A stretch of DNA of 60,029 bases from the NCBI GenBank assembly GCA_027448785.1, contig DAIDMW010000003.1, forward strand, positions 1-60,029, given 5' to 3'. Under the pieces are notes generated by a model that saw nothing but the letters and a program-made list of their open reading frames with translations, was not told the DNA's origin and ran no database searches. Of this stretch, positions 2,396 to 29,033 are shown one piece after another. Each line of letters begins with the position of its first letter. Position 1 is the stretch's first letter. The position numbers and the translations under genes are program-made. Source of the DNA: Candidatus Colwellbacteria bacterium. GTDB taxonomy: Bacteria > Patescibacteriota > Minisyncoccia > UBA6257 > Colwellbacteraceae.

Positions 2396-4513
2396 ATGGC
2401 TAAGAAAAAAAACAGAAATCGCGGTAACGCAGGAAAATCCAGTAAGCCGACTCCGACAGCAAAGGAACCTTTTTTGCATCCGGAACTTAAATTAAGCATC
2501 TGGGCAATAGTTTCAATGGCTATCGCTCTGGTGTTATTGCTTTCAAGCGCCGGGCAGGCCGGGCCGGCCGGCAGCTTCCTTTTCAACCAATTTTCCTACC
2601 TCTTGGGTTTGGGATACTATCTGCTCCCGCTAATCCTCTTCATTGTCGGCATCGCTCTTGTAACCGACGGGCGGAAAAAGCTGGTAGCGGTTTCTTTCAT
2701 CGGCGCTTTTCTATTCTTACTGTCCGGCTTGGGGCTGTTCGGTATCATCTTCCCGGGCAGAGCCGGCGTTATAGGCGAGTTCCTCGCCGGCATCCAAAAC
2801 ATGTTCGGCTACTGGGCTTCGATTGCCATCAACCTGGCAGTTCTAATCATCGGCCTGCTTGTCTCCCTAAACACACCTCTCAGGCTCCGCGTTGGAAAGA
2901 AATTAGACGAGGATGACAGAAAAGAGGAAAAGAATAAAAAGGAAGTTTTACTCGAGATGCCGAAAATAATAATGCCCGGCGAAGCGGCTCCTTCGCCGTC
3001 AGCCGAGCCGCCGAAGAGAGAAGAGCTAAAAGTTACCGCGCCCGCTGAGGAGGCGAAAGAAAGCCTCGTTTCCTTGAAACAGAGATCCACTCCGCGCCGG
3101 TTGAAGAACTACGTCTTCCCTCCCCTCGCCCTGTTGAAGTCGTCGACCGACAAGCCGACCGTCGGCGACCTGCGAGCTAACGCCAACATCATTAAGCGCA
3201 CCCTGGAGAGCTTCGGCATTCCGGTAGAGATGGGCGAAATAACCATCGGGCCGAAAGTGACTCGGTACACGCTGAAGCCGGCGGAAGGAATCAAGCTGAC
3301 CAGGATCACCGCCTTAGGGCAGGATCTTAGCTTGGCGCTGGCCGCGCACCCAATCAGGATCGAGGCTCCAATCCCTGGAAAGTCGCTGGTCGGAATTGAA
3401 ATCCCCAACAAGATTCCGAGTATCGTCCGCCTCGGCAACCTCTTGTCCTATCGCGAATTCAGCGACTCCCCCGCCCTCTCCGTTCCTTTGGGGAGAGACG
3501 TGGCCGGCGAACCTATTTTTGCCAACTTAGCCAAGATGCCCCACTTGTTAATCGCCGGCGCGACCGGCAGTGGCAAGAGCGTAACCATCCATTCGCTTTT
3601 AATCTCCCTCCTTTATAAAAACTCCCCCGAGACGCTGCGCCTGATCTTGATAGACCCGAAAAAAGTTGAGCTTACGCCATACGAAGGGCTCCCACATCTA
3701 GTCGCCCCGGTTATCACTCAAGGCAAGAAAGCGGTCGCCGCCTTAAGGTTCGGCGTTGAAGAAATGGAGCGGAGGTACGACGTATTGCAGCAGGCCGGGA
3801 AAAGGGATATCGCCAGCTACAACGAAAAGCGCGAGGAGGATGTAATGCCTTACATGGTTATCGTCATCGATGAGCTGGCCGACCTGATGGCCGCTTTCGG
3901 ACGAGAAATCGAAGGCTATATCGTACGTCTGGCCCAGATGGCGCGCGCCACCGGAATACACCTGGTGGTCTCAACCCAGCGCCCCTCGGTCGAGGTTATC
4001 ACCGGCCTCATCAAAGCCAACATTACCGCGAGAATCGCCCTCCAGGTCGCCAGCCAAGTCGACTCTCGGACCATCCTCGATATGGCCGGAGCAGAGAAAC
4101 TCCTTGGAGGAGGCGACATGCTTTTCCTTTCGTCCGACTATTCCAAGCCGAAGAGAATCCAGTCCGCCTTCATCAGCGAAGAGGAGATAAACAAGGTGTC
4201 TCAGTTCATTAAGAAAGAAAATCCGGACGACGGCGGCGCCGCGCAGGAAGACCGGGTAGAAGCGGTGATGGCCAAAGCGGGAAGCGTCGAGGGCGGAGAC
4301 GGTGAGGACGACATGCTCGATGAGGCAATCGGTGTGGTCAAGGAGGCAAAAAAGGCTTCGGCCTCCCTATTGCAACGACGACTCCGTGTAGGCTATGCGC
4401 GAGCCGCCCGTCTTCTCGACTTAATGGAAGACCGCGGAATCATAGGTCCAGGAGAAGGAGCAAAACCCCGGGAAGTTTATATAACCGACGAAGATGGAGC
4501 AGAACAATTATAA
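2396..4513 (+). CDS. ftsK: DNA translocase FtsK/SpoIIIE
   Basis: N-terminal TM helices, GATGSGKS Walker A, IDELADLM, gamma domain LLQRRLRVGYARAARL. Confidence 0.97.
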   Translation: MAKKKNRNRGNAGKSSKPTPTAKEPFLHPELKLSIWAIVSMAIALVLLLSSAGQAGPAGSFLFNQFSYLLGLGYYLLPLILFIVGIALVTDGRKKLVAVSFIGAFLFLLSGLGLFGIIFPGRAGVIGEFLAGIQNMFGYWASIAINLAVLIIGLLVSLNTPLRLRVGKKLDEDDRKEEKNKKEVLLEMPKIIMPGEAAPSPSAEPPKREELKVTAPAEEAKESLVSLKQRSTPRRLKNYVFPPLALLKSSTDKPTVGDLRANANIIKRTLESFGIPVEMGEITIGPKVTRYTLKPAEGIKLTRITALGQDLSLALAAHPIRIEAPIPGKSLVGIEIPNKIPSIVRLGNLLSYREFSDSPALSVPLGRDVAGEPIFANLAKMPHLLIAGATGSGKSVTIHSLLISLLYKNSPETLRLILIDPKKVELTPYEGLPHLVAPVITQGKKAVAALRFGVEEMERRYDVLQQAGKRDIASYNEKREEDVMPYMVIVIDELADLMAAFGREIEGYIVRLAQMARATGIHLVVSTQRPSVEVITGLIKANITARIALQVASQVDSRTILDMAGAEKLLGGGDMLFLSSDYSKPKRIQSAFISEEEINKVSQFIKKENPDDGGAAQEDRVEAVMAKAGSVEGGDGEDDMLDEAIGVVKEAKKASASLLQRRLRVGYARAARLLDLMEDRGIIGPGEGAKPREVYITDEDGAEQL

Positions 4514-13695: not shown

Positions 13696-13835
13696 CATCT
13701 ACAATACCTCGCCGCTTGCGACGAGGTTATGCAAAAATAGCAGGTGGAAACATCCTGAGTCACGTCGAAGGATGGAAACATCCTGAGTCACGTCGAAGGA
13801 TGGAAACATCCTGAGCTGCGTCGAAGGATAGCTGT
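13696..13835. repeat. Right copy of the inverted repeat, with a 28-bp unit triplicated (starts 13747, 13775, 13803)
   Basis: GAAACATCCTGAGTCACGTCGAAGGATG twice plus one variant copy. Confidence 0.9.
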
Positions 13836-14010
13836 AAACAGACGGGAGGTATGAGGGAGCCTTACAAAATTTCCATAGGAAATTTTCTAAAACCACTCGG
13901 TTTTAGTATTTTCTCCATGGGAACGTTCCATTGCCCCCCCGACTCTCTTCGGGTTCGATTCCCCTTAAAGAAACTGCCCTACGCTAAACGCGGGCAGTTT
14001 CTTTTTTAAG

Positions 14011-14082
14011 GGAGGCATGAGGGAATCGAACCCTCGTTGGCAGTGCCACAAACTGCAGTGTTACCGCTACACCAATGCCTCC
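14011..14082 (-). tRNA. tRNA-His(GUG)
   Basis: Cloverleaf, anticodon arm GCAGT-TTGTGGC-ACTGC, G-1:C73. Confidence 0.95.
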
Positions 14083-14200
14083 ATAAATATCGCCTACATA
14101 CTAACCTAAAAGAGCTCTTAAATCAAAAAACTTCACGAAGCTCGACTCCGTGATTTTTTATTTTTTTAATTTTGTGCTTTTAGCTTTTATCTATTATGTG

Positions 14201-14272
14201 TGCCCCCGAGAGGAATCGAACCCCTATTTGGGGATTAGAAGTCCCTCGTTCTATCCATTGAACTACGGGGGC
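14201..14272 (-). tRNA. tRNA-Arg(UCU)
   Basis: GCCCCCG acceptor, loop CTTCTAA, GGTTCGATTCC T arm. Confidence 0.95.
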
Positions 14273-14332
14273 AGGCTACGCTTATCTTAAGAAAAACGGC
14301 CCTCGCTAGCAAGCTAGTGAGGGCCAAAGCCG

Positions 14333-14587
14333 TCAGGCGCGGGCAGGGGTACCGATGATCTTAAACTCGATCTTTTTCTTTTCGGTCCGGAAACCTTGCG
14401 GGTTGCCGGTTGAAATTTCGGTTACGACCTCCGGGCCCATTGATCCATCCTCGTAGACCGGACGATAAATCACCATGCCGCTCCTGGATGACCACTTGAT
14501 ATCGATAACCTTCAAGAGCGCCGCCTCCTGCGATAAATAGTTGGAACAGATACTGGTTCGGTATGCCACAAAATATAATATCTGCAA
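14333..14587 (-). CDS. Hypothetical protein between tRNAs
   Basis: 84-aa ORF followed by hairpin GGCCCTC...GAGGGCC; no recognisable motif. Confidence 0.35.
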   Translation of the reverse strand: MQILYFVAYRTSICSNYLSQEAALLKVIDIKWSSRSGMVIYRPVYEDGSMGPEVVTEISTGNPQGFRTEKKKIEFKIIGTPARA

Positions 14588-14690
14588 TATGTGCCTCTGT
14601 GGGGAAGCTTCCGTTTCCCCGACCTTTTTCCCGTTCGATTCCAGGACAAAAAATAAAATCTCCTGGATTTATCCAGGAGATTTTAATCTG

Positions 14691-14762
14691 TGCCCTCGCG
14701 GGGAATCGAACCTCGATTAGCGCGTTAGGAGTGCGCTGTTCTATCCATTGAACTACGAGGGC
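14691..14762 (-). tRNA. tRNA-Arg(CCU)
   Basis: GCCCTCG acceptor, loop CTCCTAA. Confidence 0.95.
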
Positions 14763-14837
14763 TGGCATGGATAATATACTAAAAAACCGATGATAATTGC
14801 AATTTACCATTGCGCATAGTAAGATTTTTCACAGACA

Positions 14838-14909
14838 GCCGCGGTAGCTCAGTGGTAGAGCGCATCCCTGAAGAGGATGGCGTCGGGGGTCCGATTCCCT
14901 CCCGCGGCA
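14838..14909 (+). tRNA. tRNA-Phe(GAA)
   Basis: CATCC-CTGAAGA-GGATG anticodon arm; T loop reads TCCGATT. Confidence 0.9.
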
Positions 14910-15023
14910 CACTTCGACTCGCTTTGCCTTGGTCTGAGCTAAACGGAAGACTCGCTCAGTGCAGACACCAGACTCCTCGCATTACACTAATAATTAACCT
15001 GTGGTAAATTAAAAAAGTTGATC

Positions 15024-15094
15024 CGGGGTGTCGTATAGTGGTAGTACGCATGCTTTGGGAGCATGTAGTCCCAGTTCGATTCTGGGCACCCCGA
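15024..15094 (+). tRNA. tRNA-Pro(UGG)
   Basis: CGGGGTG acceptor, CATGC-TTTGGGA-GCATG. Confidence 0.95.
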
Positions 15095-15156
15095 CAAAAG
15101 GACTAATAATCTTCAGGACATCGCGCGATAATAAGCGGCGGATGTATAATAAAAAC

Positions 15157-16119
15157 ATGAAGGAAGATATTTTAAATTTTTCTGCGCAATTCTCCTACAA
15201 ACCAAAAATAGAAAACGCCGGCAAACTTCAGACAAGGCGCGAGTTTATTGTCGCCGGAATGGGAGGATCCCATCTGGCTGCCGATCTTTTAAGAACTTGG
15301 CAGCCCGATCTGCCGCTTTTAATCCACAGCGATTACAACCTGCCTAATCTGCCGAAGGGAAAACTAAAGAAATCTCTCGTCATCGCCAACTCCTACTCAG
15401 GCAACACCGAGGAGACGCTCAGCGCGTTCAACGCGGCGCTAAAGGCAAATCTTCCGCTTATCGCCGTCGGCACCGGAGGAAAGCTGATAACCTCCGCGAA
15501 AAAGAACGGAATCCCGTTTATTCAGACTCCGGTGGCACGCGCTGAGCCGCGGGCGGCCATCGGCTACAACTTCGTTGCGCTCCTCAAGGCGATGAACCTG
15601 AGCCGCGACCTCAAAGAGGCCCACGCCCTGGAAAAATCCCTGCGCCCGGAAAAGCTGGAATCTATCGGGAGGAAGATGGCGCAAGAAATCGGCGGGAAAG
15701 CCCTTGTCGCCTATTCTTCCGAACGCAACCGCGCTCTGGCCTACAACTGGAAGATAAACATGAATGAGACCGCGAAATCCCCGGCCTTCGTCAACGTCTT
15801 TCCGGAGCTAAACCACAACGAGATGAACGCCTTCGCTAAAAAAATAAATAAGGGTTCTTCCGATTTTTATTTTCTGATCCTCAAAGGGAAGAATGAACAG
15901 GCGCGCATCGAAAAGCGAATGGCCATCCTGCGCGAAATCCTAAGCCAGAGAAACTGGCCGGTGAAAGAAATGCCGTTCGGCGACTCTGGCGAACTGCAGG
16001 ATATCTTCCATTGTGTCCTGCTCTCGATGTGGACTTCATATTTCGTCGCTGAAAGCCGCGGAGAGGATCCGGATCATACGCCGATAATCGAAGAGTTTAA
16101 AAAGAGGATGGCAGCCTAA
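15157..16119 (+). CDS. Bifunctional phosphoglucose/phosphomannose isomerase (SIS domain)
   Basis: GMGGS, SYSGNTEET, KININETAK-like, PELNHNEM; start reassigned because the track ORF runs through tRNA-Pro. Confidence 0.9.
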   Translation: MKEDILNFSAQFSYKPKIENAGKLQTRREFIVAGMGGSHLAADLLRTWQPDLPLLIHSDYNLPNLPKGKLKKSLVIANSYSGNTEETLSAFNAALKANLPLIAVGTGGKLITSAKKNGIPFIQTPVARAEPRAAIGYNFVALLKAMNLSRDLKEAHALEKSLRPEKLESIGRKMAQEIGGKALVAYSSERNRALAYNWKINMNETAKSPAFVNVFPELNHNEMNAFAKKINKGSSDFYFLILKGKNEQARIEKRMAILREILSQRNWPVKEMPFGDSGELQDIFHCVLLSMWTSYFVAESRGEDPDHTPIIEEFKKRMAA

Positions 16120-16121
16120 AA

Positions 16122-16751
16122 TCAGCTGTTCGTCATCTGGTCGAACTGCTTCATCAAGCTCTGATACTGGGTATTAAGATTATTGATGGATTTCGCCTGA
16201 TCGTTCATCTGCGAGATGACGCTGTTGATCTTCGCGGCTGACGCTGCGGCGGCGCCGTTCTGCAGGCGGCTGCGCAATAGGTCGAGAAGCTGGTAAGTGT
16301 AGTTGTTGTAGCTAATCAGGCCCTCGACGATTTGCGACTCGATGATAATGGCCTGTAGCCCGATCCTCGCCGCGGATTCCGGCTGGACCTGTGAAAGATT
16401 CGAGGCCATAACGTTCAGTTGGTCGGACAACTGCACCGCGCTGGCGCGCGCTTGGTTATTTTGATTTATCTCCTCCAAAACCAAAGTAAGCCCAGCGGTG
16501 TAGTTTCCACTCTTCTCATCGGCCTGTATCTCCTGTAGATTCTTAATAGAGTTGTCGGAAATACCAACGATGACCTGCGATGCGTCCCCACCGGCCGCCC
16601 TGGCCTTCAAAAACTCGGACGGCACGTGCGGCTGGCCGGAACTATTCAAAAGCCTTAACAGAAAAGCCAAAATAAGAGCCGCCACCACGACGGCGACGAT
16701 CCAAACCCAGTTCTTCCTCACAACTCCCAGTCTGGTAATCATTTTGGGCAA
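16122..16751 (-). CDS. Hypothetical membrane-anchored helical protein
   Basis: N-terminal TM followed by Q/N-rich coiled-coil-like sequence. Confidence 0.7.
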   Translation of the reverse strand: MPKMITRLGVVRKNWVWIVAVVVAALILAFLLRLLNSSGQPHVPSEFLKARAAGGDASQVIVGISDNSIKNLQEIQADEKSGNYTAGLTLVLEEINQNNQARASAVQLSDQLNVMASNLSQVQPESAARIGLQAIIIESQIVEGLISYNNYTYQLLDLLRSRLQNGAAAASAAKINSVISQMNDQAKSINNLNTQYQSLMKQFDQMTNS

Positions 16752-16886
16752 TTCTAACCGATTTTTCTTCGACTGTGAAGTTCGGCCTTCATCTGGACTT
16801 TATAACCAGCGGCACCGCTTTTTGATTGGAAAATTATCACCTATAATTTCTTTACGCATCAAAGGTCGCAAAAAAAAATTAAAAAG

Positions 16887-17591
16887 ATGCCTAAAAACAA
16901 GTTCATCATCACGGGAGCGGTTCTGGTCGCCGCTTTCACTGTTTATTTCGGAGTGTCACGAGCAGCGCTCGCCGACGATAGCGGCGGCGATGCTCAGGGG
17001 ACAAGCGCCGTTTCCAATCTGCTGCCAGTCGTCACCACCACCTCATCGGAAGGAGAAAGTTCCAGTCAGTCGAGCAACCTCTACTCCTACGCCAACGCCT
17101 GGCAGAGCCAAGCCAAGAACCTGGAAGATTCTTTTTCCAGCGCCTTCGACAACACGGTGCAATCCGGAATAAAGGCGGAGCAGATGCCTTCAAGCGTCAG
17201 CATCGGCCCCAACGGGCAGATCCGCATGACCGGCGCAAGCCTCACGGCCGTCTCGGGAAACAATGTAACCGTAAACATTTGGGGGTTGACCTTCAACGTT
17301 AACGCTTCCCAGGCGCAGCTCGCCGGCTCCAGCCAGCAGACCATCGCACTCACCGACATGCAAGTCGGCGACAAGCTGACGGTCACCGGAACGATCGACC
17401 CTTCGACCGGAGCGGTTACGGGACAAGTGATCGTCGACTACTCGCTGGCCACCAGGCAGGCTGGCTCAGCTCTGCAGTCTAGAATCAACCAGCTTCTGCA
17501 GCTCATCCAGCAATTGCAAAGCCAGCTGAATCTAATGCAGGGCGGCACCGGAGCCACAACCTCGGCCGCCACTTCGACTGCCGGGCAGTAA
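16887..17591 (+). CDS. Secreted protein with DUF5666-like OB domain
   Basis: Signal peptide, DMQVGDKLTVTG, C-terminal INQLLQLIQQLQSQL; terminator 17610-17638. Confidence 0.65.
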   Translation: MPKNKFIITGAVLVAAFTVYFGVSRAALADDSGGDAQGTSAVSNLLPVVTTTSSEGESSSQSSNLYSYANAWQSQAKNLEDSFSSAFDNTVQSGIKAEQMPSSVSIGPNGQIRMTGASLTAVSGNNVTVNIWGLTFNVNASQAQLAGSSQQTIALTDMQVGDKLTVTGTIDPSTGAVTGQVIVDYSLATRQAGSALQSRINQLLQLIQQLQSQLNLMQGGTGATTSAATSTAGQ

Positions 17592-17699
17592 GAATCCCGC
17601 CAGACTTGGAAAACGCCCCCTCTGCGGGGCGTTTTCTGATGTTGGCAAATCGCGTTTTTTCGCTTAAAATCAATCCTAGTCAGAGTGACAGCTCTGTTA

Positions 17700-17773
17700 G
17701 CGGGATTAGTATAGTGGTAGTACGCCACCTTGCCAAGGTGATGGCGCCAGTTCGATTCTGGTATCCCGCTCCA
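17700..17773 (+). tRNA. tRNA-Gly(GCC), CCA encoded
   Basis: GCGGGAT acceptor, loop TTGCCAA. Confidence 0.95.
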
Positions 17774-17821
17774 CTAAAATAAGACGACCTTTAAGAGTCG
17801 TCTTATTTTGTAGCGGGATAC

Positions 17822-18292
17822 CTATTTTCCCCATCCCTCGCTCATATAAGGCGCGCAGACCAGCGCGCAAACCGGACGGTCTTTACACTTGATGCCTACC
17901 ATTTTGAACTGCACCTCCCCATACTCGTTCTTGCGGTACTGGCGCATATTCTCCAAAGAATCGCGGATCAATCCCTCAACCTCGGACTCCGATCCGCCTT
18001 GGTGCTCGACGAAAAGGCCACGGCCGGTTTTGTCCTGTATCCAGCCCAAGCCGGCCCAAGCCTCTTTCTCCGGCTCAGTCTCGATCCTAGAACTTAAAAC
18101 CGCATAAAGTCGGTGGCCATACTCCGCGGACTGCGGTTCGGCTTTTTTAACTTCCACCACCGCCTCTGGAGGAATAACCGAGCTTAAATGCAGGATGTTG
18201 TAATTAGCAACACCGGCATCGTTTAAAGCGCTGTCGAAAGCGCTTAATTCGGTCGGGCCGCTGCCGATTCCGTAAGTGACTGATATGTTCAT
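17822..18292 (-). CDS. Pyruvoyl-dependent arginine decarboxylase
   Basis: AFDSALNDAGVANYNILHLSSVIP (self-cleavage Ser-Ser), GLFVEH; start set at MNISV. Confidence 0.88.
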   Translation of the reverse strand: MNISVTYGIGSGPTELSAFDSALNDAGVANYNILHLSSVIPPEAVVEVKKAEPQSAEYGHRLYAVLSSRIETEPEKEAWAGLGWIQDKTGRGLFVEHQGGSESEVEGLIRDSLENMRQYRKNEYGEVQFKMVGIKCKDRPVCALVCAPYMSEGWGK

Positions 18293-18372: not shown

Positions 18373-18446
18373 GGGAGCTTAGTTAAGTGGTATAACTGCG
18401 GTCTCCAAAACCGCTGTCGGGGGTTCGATTCCCTCAGCTCCCGCCA
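18373..18446 (+). tRNA. tRNA-Trp(CCA), CCA encoded
   Basis: GCGGT-CTCCAAA-ACCGC anticodon arm. Confidence 0.95.
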
Positions 18447-28139: not shown

Positions 28140-29033
28140 ATGTCCGCGATCGAAATCACACTGAAAGAGTACCTAGACTACCTAGAGATCGAGAAAAACC
28201 GCTCTCCCAGGACCCGCTCCAGCTACGAACGCTGTTTGAGGAGGTTTGTCGCGGAAGAGAACATAACCTCTCCCAAAGAGATCACCGAGGAAAGGATCCG
28301 CGACTTCCGCCTGCGCCTATCCCGCGACGGCAGGCTAAAAAAATCCACCCAGGCCTACTTTATCATCGCCATCCGCAACTTCCTAAAGTACCTGGTAAAG
28401 CGCGGGACGGAGACGGTCTCTCCCGACCGCGTCGAGCTGCCGAAGGTTCCCGAGAGGCAGATCCGTCCGTTGGAGTATTCCGACCTGGAAAGGCTGCTCG
28501 CTGCGCCAAAAGGCGGCGAGCCGCGACCCGTCCGGGACCGAGCGATACTCGAAACTCTCTTCTCCACCGGCCTGCGCGTCTCCGAGCTTTGCGCTCTAAA
28601 TAAAGACATAAACCTTGAGCGCGGGGAGTTCACCGTCCGAGGAAAGGGAGAAAAGCTGCGTGTCGTCTTCCTCTCGGAGAGAGCGAAAAAAGCAATCAAG
28701 GAGTATCTCGCCAAGCGCGAGGATCTAGAACCGGCGCTTTTTATAAGTCTCAGCGCCGGAAAAAAACCGAAGGTGACGGGGAGAATGATCCCCAGGACGG
28801 TGGAAAGATTGGTTGATCATTACGCAAAAAGCGCGGGGATACCCCGAAGGATAACCCCGCACCAATTGCGTCACCAGTTCGCCACCGACCTGCTGCTAAA
28901 CGGAGCCGACCTGCGCTCCGTCCAGGAGCTCTTGGGCCACAGCAACATCTCCACCACGCAAATCTATACGCACATCACCAACAAGGAGCTGCGCGAAGTG
29001 CACCAGGCCTTCCATGGAAAAAGAAGAAAATAA
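28140..29033 (+). CDS. XerC/XerD-like tyrosine recombinase
   Basis: SAM-like N-terminus; catalytic R (TGLRVSEL), K (GKGEK), HQLRH, LGH, Y (TQIYTH) all intact. Confidence 0.93.
   Translation: MSAIEITLKEYLDYLEIEKNRSPRTRSSYERCLRRFVAEENITSPKEITEERIRDFRLRLSRDGRLKKSTQAYFIIAIRNFLKYLVKRGTETVSPDRVELPKVPERQIRPLEYSDLERLLAAPKGGEPRPVRDRAILETLFSTGLRVSELCALNKDINLERGEFTVRGKGEKLRVVFLSERAKKAIKEYLAKREDLEPALFISLSAGKKPKVTGRMIPRTVERLVDHYAKSAGIPRRITPHQLRHQFATDLLLNGADLRSVQELLGHSNISTTQIYTHITNKELREVHQAFHGKRRK

Follow-up and report, generated by a model that had tools for sequence, protein, structure and literature searches.

The stretch of DNA analysed here, referred to as the window, comprises 60,029 nt of the 597-kb genome of a Candidatus Colwellbacteria bacterium (G000), which has 41 tRNAs. 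A sequence-only reading of the window had pointed out that the 3' trailers of three tRNA genes contain inverted copies of their own tRNA, and had proposed either a hairpin that controls tRNA maturation or the footprint of a tRNA-targeting element. Comparison with related genomes indicated that the 'antisense trailers' of tRNA-His and tRNA-Arg(CCT) form the outer ends of a gene-less mini-element with a conserved module of three hairpins, which is present there in two decayed copies. The module family, which to judge from its sequence matches is widespread in Patescibacteria, is probably a miniature integrative element inserted at the T loop of tRNA and transfer-messenger RNA (tmRNA) genes, and not a maturation switch. 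It was filed as a type of tRNA-gene integrative element that is miniature, gene-less and carries a folded module.

The tRNA genes in the window were called with ARAGORN and Rfam. tRNA-His(GTG) (14010-14081, minus strand), the host gene of copy 1, is accompanied by a 13-nt inverted match to its own T arm (GGGTTCGATTCCC, 13951-13963 against 14021-14033). The match at tRNA-Arg(CCT) (14690-14762, minus strand), the host gene of copy 2, is 10 nt long (GTTCGATTCC, 14633-14642 against 14702-14711) and is merely the T-loop core common to many tRNAs. At tRNA-Gly(GCC) (17700-17773, plus strand) an 11-nt match was found (17760-17770 against 17812-17822). All three inverted copies were thus located where they had been described. 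An inverted match of at least 9 nt within 130 nt downstream was present at 6 of the 41 tRNAs of this genome, as compared with 3% when another tRNA's flank was used and 0% with the tRNA's own upstream flank. The self-complementarity of the 3' flanks, for which a comparison with controls had been proposed, is therefore above chance. The trailers of tRNA-His and tRNA-Arg(CCT) could be aligned with each other over about 60 nt, in agreement with the common motif reported by the sequence-only reading (GTCGGGG..GGAA..TTCCC). The motif is hairpin 3 and linker 2 of the module, read on the opposite strand. The premise that direct repeats of the attachment-site (att) type are lacking was wrong; direct repeats at 13844-13865 and 14590-14604 had been overlooked.

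The family was detected with a covariance model (R1) built on hairpin 2, hairpin 3 and the T-loop box. According to the search of relatives, the conserved unit spans from the box to about 110 nt beyond it, and the module measures about 125 nt plus a locus-specific spacer. Each copy examined had the same layout (12 genomes compared). On the strand opposite the tRNA, the unit starts with the reverse complement of the tRNA 3' end, made up of the acceptor and T-stem 3' strands and often a few trailer bases. A T-loop-like heptamer, often TCTCAC rather than TCGAAC, and hairpin 1 come next, followed by hairpin 2 (CTAAAACC-nnnn-GGTTTTAG), a linker (TATTTCCGCCAC), hairpin 3 (GGGGAAAC-TYCC-GTTTCCCC) and a second linker (GACCCCYTTCCC). 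The end part consists of the box GTTCGAWTCC with several T-stem 3'-strand bases, a locus-specific spacer, which is usually a terminator, and the convergent real tRNA. Viewed on the tRNA strand, the order is intact tRNA or tmRNA, spacer, T-loop box (T'), three hairpins, element-type T loop (GTGAGAT or GTTCGAT), direct repeat and native flank. The direct repeat lies beyond the module and covers tRNA positions from about 60 to the 3' end.

The left arm of copy 1 (13844-13865, minus strand) is a displaced, degenerate direct repeat of the tRNA-His 3' end, identical to 14010-14031 at 17 of 22 positions and composed of the acceptor 3' strand, the T-stem 3' strand and a mutated T loop. Its ortholog in G001, the sister species used for orthologous loci, is an 18-nt exact repeat. 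The remaining parts of copy 1 lie on the plus strand. Hairpin 1 (AAAATTTCC-ATA-GGAAATTTT, 13866-13886) keeps its pairing though the sequence differs between copies. Hairpin 2 (CTAAAACC-ACTC-GGTTTTAG, 13887-13906) was assigned with R1, and two-sided changes were observed in all 8 pairs of its helix. The conserved linker (13907-13918) reads TATTTTCTCCAT here, against the family consensus TATTTCCGCCAC, and the decayed hairpin 3 (13919-13940) has two mismatches relative to intact copies. Linker 2 (13941-13950; family consensus GACCCCYTTC) leads into the T' box (13951-13964), in which the T loop of tRNA-His and the beginning of its T-stem 3' strand are copied in inverted form. Between module and tRNA-His lies a locus-specific bidirectional terminator hairpin (the 'V' segment, 13967-14004), which is kept in G001 with compensatory changes.

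Copy 2 consists of a remnant of the displaced tRNA-Arg(CCT) 3' end (14590-14604, minus strand; TGTGCCTCTGTGGGG against TGTGCCCTCGCGGGG), hairpin 3 (GGGGAAGC-TTCC-GTTTCCCC) with linker 2 (14601-14632, plus strand) and the box GTTCGATTCC (14633-14642, plus strand), with a bidirectional terminator (14655-14684) between it and tRNA-Arg(CCT). A score of 40.9 bits was obtained with R1 on this truncated copy. Since the G001 ortholog has the whole module and a 19-nt exact repeat, copy 2 has evidently lost about 75 nt, corresponding to hairpins 1 and 2. A third copy in this genome, behind tRNA-Arg(TCG) on contig 7 (33740-33814), is intact and has a 16-nt perfect box; a fourth lies behind tRNA-Met on contig 2 (29119-29193). 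When folded as single-stranded DNA, the intact contig-7 copy formed a closing stem of arm and box together with the hairpins, at z = -6.9, compared with z = -2.8 and no closing stem for copy 1. Both window copies are decayed.

Among 151 genomes of the order, which were also used for the co-occurrence with enzymes, R1 found the module in 58, with a maximum of 15 matches per genome. An exact-pattern scan of one genome per species matched at least 120 stretches, and the matches listed were from Liptonbacteria, Colwellbacteria, Jorgensenbacteria, Harrisonbacteria, Moraniibacteria, Uhrbacteria, Paceibacteria and similar groups. Among these listed matches, a sample independent of the R1 set, a tRNA or tmRNA gene was located no more than 260 nt away in 43 of the 48 copies with enough flank, and at least 24 types of host gene were represented, counted by anticodon and with tmRNA included. 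Two more copies adjoin tmRNA genes confirmed by Rfam, and most copies without a called tRNA have a partner repeat directly downstream.

The box was found to follow its neighbour closely. It tracks the T-loop variants of the adjacent tRNA (ATT, AAT, ACT, ATC, TCCGACT, TTCAAAT) as well as its T-stem 3' strand. The exact prefix after GTTC was 5.7 nt with the own tRNA and 1.7 nt with others, and the identity over the next 12 nt of the box was 8.1 with the own tRNA and 6.0 with others; for both measures, none of 10,000 permutations gave a value as high. The co-variation of trailer and T arm, which had been proposed as a check, is thus borne out. It is the 3' strand of the T stem that is copied and not the 5' strand, as seen at tRNA-Arg(TCG), where the box has CCTGG whereas the complement of the 5' strand would be CCCGG. 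Instead of a fixed motif equally common away from tRNAs, a box that co-varies was found, and about 90% of copies adjoin a tRNA or tmRNA gene. Of 72 copies, 49 have an exact direct repeat that starts at tRNA positions 59-61, and in 53 the repeat stops no more than 2 nt away from where the called tRNA ends; lengths of 15-16 nt are the most common.

No match on the module was obtained in Rfam 15 at E values up to 10, and only tRNA and tmRNA were found above the gathering threshold. A search of the full-text literature gave no description of the family, which matches none of the catalogued RNA or mobile-element families checked. A missed tRNA, tmRNA, signal recognition particle RNA or 5S RNA was excluded, as the module is multi-copy, has no acceptor stem and has no Rfam match.

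Occupancy differs between close relatives. At tRNA-Trp a copy is present in G001 and lacking in the window (tRNA at 18373-18446); in G001 the repeat is TTCCCTCAGCTCCCGC, 16 nt in length, and the native flank resumes after the distal copy. tRNA-Asp carries a copy in the related genome G004 and is unoccupied in this genome. Tandem arrays of the mini-element also exist. In another genome (G139; loci L080 and L081) the hairpin 2 loop of the mini-element contains a nested transposon of 280 nt, whose inverted ends measure 19 nt (GGACCCTATCGCAATTCTT), and the composite of module and nested transposon is present at both tRNA-Pro(GGG) and tRNA-Ile(TAT). Module identity was 72.7% at the same tRNA in different genomes, 72.6% at different tRNAs and 76.3% within one genome. 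The similarity is thus independent of tRNA type, and no lineage of the element is bound to a single tRNA; this calls either for retargeting or for homogenisation among the copies of a genome. The suggestion of a footprint of a tRNA-targeting element agrees well with these results, namely a multi-copy element with direct repeats, tandem arrays and a pair of filled and empty sites.

The covariation test was performed on 79 distinct copies in an alignment fitted to the structure model. Pairing was found in 98.7% of cells and two-sided changes in 16 of 16 pairs, a result reached by none of 500 shuffles. Functional RNA normally tolerates G:U pairs far better than A:C. Among about 1,200 cells, G:U was observed in 12 and A:C in 11, and no strand signal was seen. 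Furthermore, a terminator hairpin directly abuts the left arm in several copies, which leaves no room for a promoter there. The equal rarity of G:U and A:C and the lack of promoter room were taken as moderate evidence for a fold acting as DNA. These sequence comparisons hint that the fold may matter as DNA rather than RNA.

The element is about 200 nt long, with no open reading frame and no integrase gene inside. This genome was searched for an enzyme that could move it. One Xer-like tyrosine recombinase was found, in the window at 28470-28982. No Y1 transposase (PF01797), IS110 (PF01548), TnpB (PF07282), serine recombinase (PF00239) or Cas1 was found in this genome. A C-terminal fragment of a reverse transcriptase is present at the start of contig 12 (8-190), about 580 nt upstream of tRNA-Gly(CCC). 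In most genomes of the order, including those richest in elements, the tyrosine recombinase is single-copy. Reverse transcriptase occurred in 75 of the 151 genomes, namely in 34 of 58 with the module and 41 of 93 without it (odds ratio about 1.8), and serine recombinase (PF00239) in 29 of 58 and 42 of 93, respectively. Module presence was discriminated by none of the three enzymes, reverse transcriptase, serine recombinase or tyrosine recombinase, over the 151 genomes.

A serine-recombinase element was considered as the autonomous parent and rejected, because the module was absent from 30 recombinase loci and 10 wider ones and no repeats of the tRNA end were present. A single adjacency of such an element and the module was seen (G130), where the serine-recombinase element looks as if it had inserted later, between tRNA-Ala and an older mini-element. 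The 10 wide loci from relatives (L255-L264) hold large serine recombinase genes (450-620 aa) convergent with tRNA or tmRNA genes at their 3' ends, and in most of them the recombinase reading frame overlaps the tRNA 3' end. Within 4 kb, no tRNA-end repeat of at least 12 nt was found at these loci, save one chance match between adjacent tRNAs.

Under the favoured reading, the mini-element would integrate site-specifically, with a crossover near T-loop positions 58-60. The functional tRNA would retain its own T loop and gain an element-borne 3' end, and the native end would be displaced. The distal copy would then be the element-type T loop (GTGAGAT) joined to native positions 60-76 and the native flank, and the direct repeat would go no further than the end of the tRNA, since selection acts on that part only. 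The T' box and the displaced arm may act as inverted half-sites that close the three-hairpin module into one folded unit. This unit would be the attachment (recombination) site, active as folded DNA, and the element would be moved in trans by an enzyme outside it.

Several observations weigh against integration of this kind. No recombinase is tied to the element. One module is found at more than 20 tRNA types with target-matched arms, which classical integration with a fixed phage-type attachment site (attP) cannot explain, so that retargeting or concerted evolution between copies must be assumed. No conservation between copies is seen in the spacer that separates tRNA from box, and the empty tRNA-Trp site is equally explicable as a deletion between repeats. 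The wobble count comprises only 23 informative cells, taken from an alignment that was fitted to the model. A second form of mobility was considered possible, if rather doubtful: a target-copying mobile element without a dedicated recombinase gene, in which a folded stretch of nucleic acid would seek out the T loop in any tRNA or tmRNA gene. Its two arms, namely the T' box and the 3' end that is rebuilt, would then take their sequence afresh from every target, perhaps through templated synthesis as the element inserts. Models based on target duplication with a fixed stagger, on fold-back synthesis, on template switching and on target-primed reverse transcription were also considered, and none of them accounts for all features, the non-conserved spacer and the inverted box being the main difficulties.

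Explanations other than a mobile DNA element were weighed as well. The strongly conserved helices with compensatory changes, the unpaired linkers conserved in sequence and the match of both arms to the target would suit a structured RNA gene on the strand opposite the tRNA, with a 5' arm antisense to the tRNA 3' end and a 3' end that mimics a T loop. Such an RNA could be a guide or bridge RNA for RNA-guided insertion, or an anti-tRNA regulator, and on that strand copy 1 does end in a good terminator with a T run. However, a G:U preference was seen on neither strand, and the abutting terminator hairpins leave no space for a promoter. What would be the 5' arm is the displaced native end of the tRNA and runs on into the native flank; it is not a guide borne by the element. 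IS110, TnpB and Cas1 were not found in this genome, nor was reverse transcriptase found in 24 of the 58 element-bearing genomes, and an RNA gene was judged unlikely. The same 24 genomes, which include near-complete assemblies with 3-5 matches, speak against a retroelement resembling short interspersed nuclear elements (SINEs), in which the arm complementary to the tRNA 3' end would be a primer-binding site. The repeat boundaries, just 3' of A58 and at the tRNA end, would then reflect tRNA-primed reverse transcription. A repeat from about position 60 to the tRNA 3' end is indeed like the 18-nt primer-binding sites of long terminal repeat (LTR) elements, and reverse transcriptases are common in the order, being present in about half of the genomes (75/151). 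Yet the repeats carry genomic trailer instead of CCA and can run 4-35 nt past the tRNA, and this origin was regarded as very improbable.

The maturation hairpin proposed by the sequence-only reading amounts to a cis-acting pre-tRNA trailer, in which box and T arm of a read-through transcript would form a helix that controls folding or 3' maturation. The pairing itself is an in-silico prediction. When tRNA plus trailer was folded at minimum energy, the inverted copy was predicted to pair with the T arm at His and Arg and with the acceptor strand at Gly, in place of the cloverleaf, with z = -5.3 to -6.2. The box also co-varies with the tRNA. The controlling role fared less well, because a terminator lies ahead of the box, and at Arg(CCT) and Gly this terminator has strong T runs on the strand of the tRNA. 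In addition, only 6 of the 41 tRNAs of this genome are accompanied by an inverted copy, sister species differ in occupancy, and the copies decay, copy 2 lacking 75 nt and copy 1 having a broken hairpin 3. The helices show no G:U preference, and the three conserved hairpins and the distal direct repeat would be left unexplained. A maturation switch was therefore considered quite improbable.

The integrative element that is favoured here shares features with several known systems. Williams reportedly described in 2002 that genomic islands and prophages integrate at a T-loop sublocation of tRNA and tmRNA genes, at the att sites of tyrosine integrases. The mini-element resembles such islands in its T-loop junction, in the native 3' end displaced as a direct repeat, in its use of tmRNA as a target and in tandem arrays formed by repeated insertion. 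In both, the block of identity reaches the tRNA 3' end, so that the gene is rebuilt. Unlike the islands, the mini-element has no integrase or other gene and is only about 0.2 kb in size, and one module family is found in at least 24 tRNA types. Further additions are a copy of the T loop and T stem in inverted orientation, and the conserved three-hairpin module at the distal junction.

Folded attachment sites are known from the integron attC site and from the single-stranded attP of phage CTX, which is Xer-dependent. As in these sites, a DNA module that is presumably folded is closed by imperfect inverted arms, the unit contains no recombinase, pairing is compensatory without G:U preference, and a mismatched bubble is present at the presumed crossover. 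In contrast to attC, neither IntI nor a second tyrosine recombinase is found, and the single one looks like a housekeeping Xer. The core here is the T loop GTTCGAW, with C at the first R position, and not dif or the GTTRRRY of the attC R''/R' boxes. Different from both attC and the CTX attP, the central part of the mini-element is highly conserved in sequence and not variable, and the target is a tRNA gene.

MITEs (miniature transposable elements with inverted repeats) and palindrome-associated elements, which are non-autonomous derivatives of insertion sequences (IS), are likewise short, protein-less, multi-copy and hairpin-rich, and they compare well with the mini-element in its T-loop-like inverted ends and in a presence that varies between relatives. 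Unlike in MITEs, no simple direct repeat abuts both ends of the element. The sequences flanking the ends are mutually inverted, one flank is an inverted target copy, and the partner of the direct repeat lies about 50 nt away inside the tRNA. A matching transposase was not found either, Y1, IS110 and TnpB being absent from this genome. The lack of Y1 transposase and TnpB also separates the mini-element from IS200/IS605, which inserts 3' of a short motif and without duplication, whereas the mini-element shows duplications. A structured module of about 100-150 nt with target-matching segments is reminiscent of the IS110 bridge RNA and the omega RNAs of IscB and TnpB. However, no cognate enzyme gene was found, such as the DEDD/Tnp recombinase adjacent to the RNA in IS110 elements, no sign of wobble tolerance of the RNA type was seen in the helices, and the arms of the mini-element are 13-35 nt long, one of them being the native target itself. 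The mini-element differs from tRNA-primed retroelements in the lack of CCA in its repeats and in having no strict dependence on reverse transcriptase, which is missing in 24 of 58 genomes.

The tRNA-Gly(GCC) locus appears to be a separate case. The feature there (17760-17822, plus strand) consists of the tRNA 3' strand, the terminator and the 11-nt inverted copy, and forms a palindromic terminator extended over the acceptor strand. The inverted match sits within a near-perfect palindrome of about 27 nt around the terminator. No conserved module is present at this locus, which is not a family member according to the covariance model, and the complementarity is kept neither in G001 nor in the variant contig 45 of this genome. 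The palindrome was treated as an extended bidirectional terminator; it could perhaps be a relic of the same kind of inverted duplication as in the mini-element. Contig 45 carries a variant of the junction between tRNA-Gly and arginine decarboxylase, in which a palindrome resembling repetitive extragenic palindromic (REP) sequences takes the place of the palindromic terminator (compare window 17770-17830). This variant junction suggests strain heterogeneity in the assembly.

Additional repeats were observed at other tRNA ends. At the G001 tRNA-Trp locus (L030), distal to the mini-element, a second direct repeat of 42 nt, comprising tRNA end and flank, surrounds a 68-nt insert and probably marks an older or different insertion. 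Outside the window, at about 690-830 of contig 18, tRNA-Asn is followed by a module-less hairpin, TAGGATTCGAAC-TTA-GTTCGAGTCGTA, in which TTA separates an inverted T-loop copy from a degenerate direct copy of the tRNA end. At this locus tRNA end and trailer are also directly repeated over 39 nt, and the hairpin may be a deletion product or a precursor of the element. Contig 9, also beyond the window, has at about 3580-3720 a tRNA-Pro(GGG) with a same-strand direct repeat, about 28 nt long, of its 3' half behind it; this is a classical att-type duplication without the conserved module. At 13740-13830 of the window, a 29-nt unit (GGATGGAAACATCCTGAGTCACGTCGAA) occurs three times head to tail, and related copies are dispersed on contigs 3, 4, 6, 7, 26 and 45, often near tRNAs. 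Between copy 2 and tRNA-Arg(TCT), a 47-codon open reading frame (MVIYRPVYEDGSMGPEVVTEISTGNPQGFRTEKKKIEFKIIGTPARA; 14333-14476, minus strand) was found, with an AGGAG ribosome-binding site and its own terminator.

If the favoured reading is correct, some ultra-small bacteria would have a tiny folded insert in as many as about one third of their tRNA genes; this insert would restore the tRNA end and fit each target without coding for an enzyme. The model would account for many of the stray tRNA 3' fragments and 'antisense' tRNA pieces in genomes of the candidate phyla radiation (CPR). Of practical use, the covariance model lets annotators mask such copies. The question raised is how an element of 0.2 kb finds and adapts to more than 20 different tRNA genes. 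An answer might uncover a new route of recombination, of the host Xer type or based on replication, or else a guide of a new kind.

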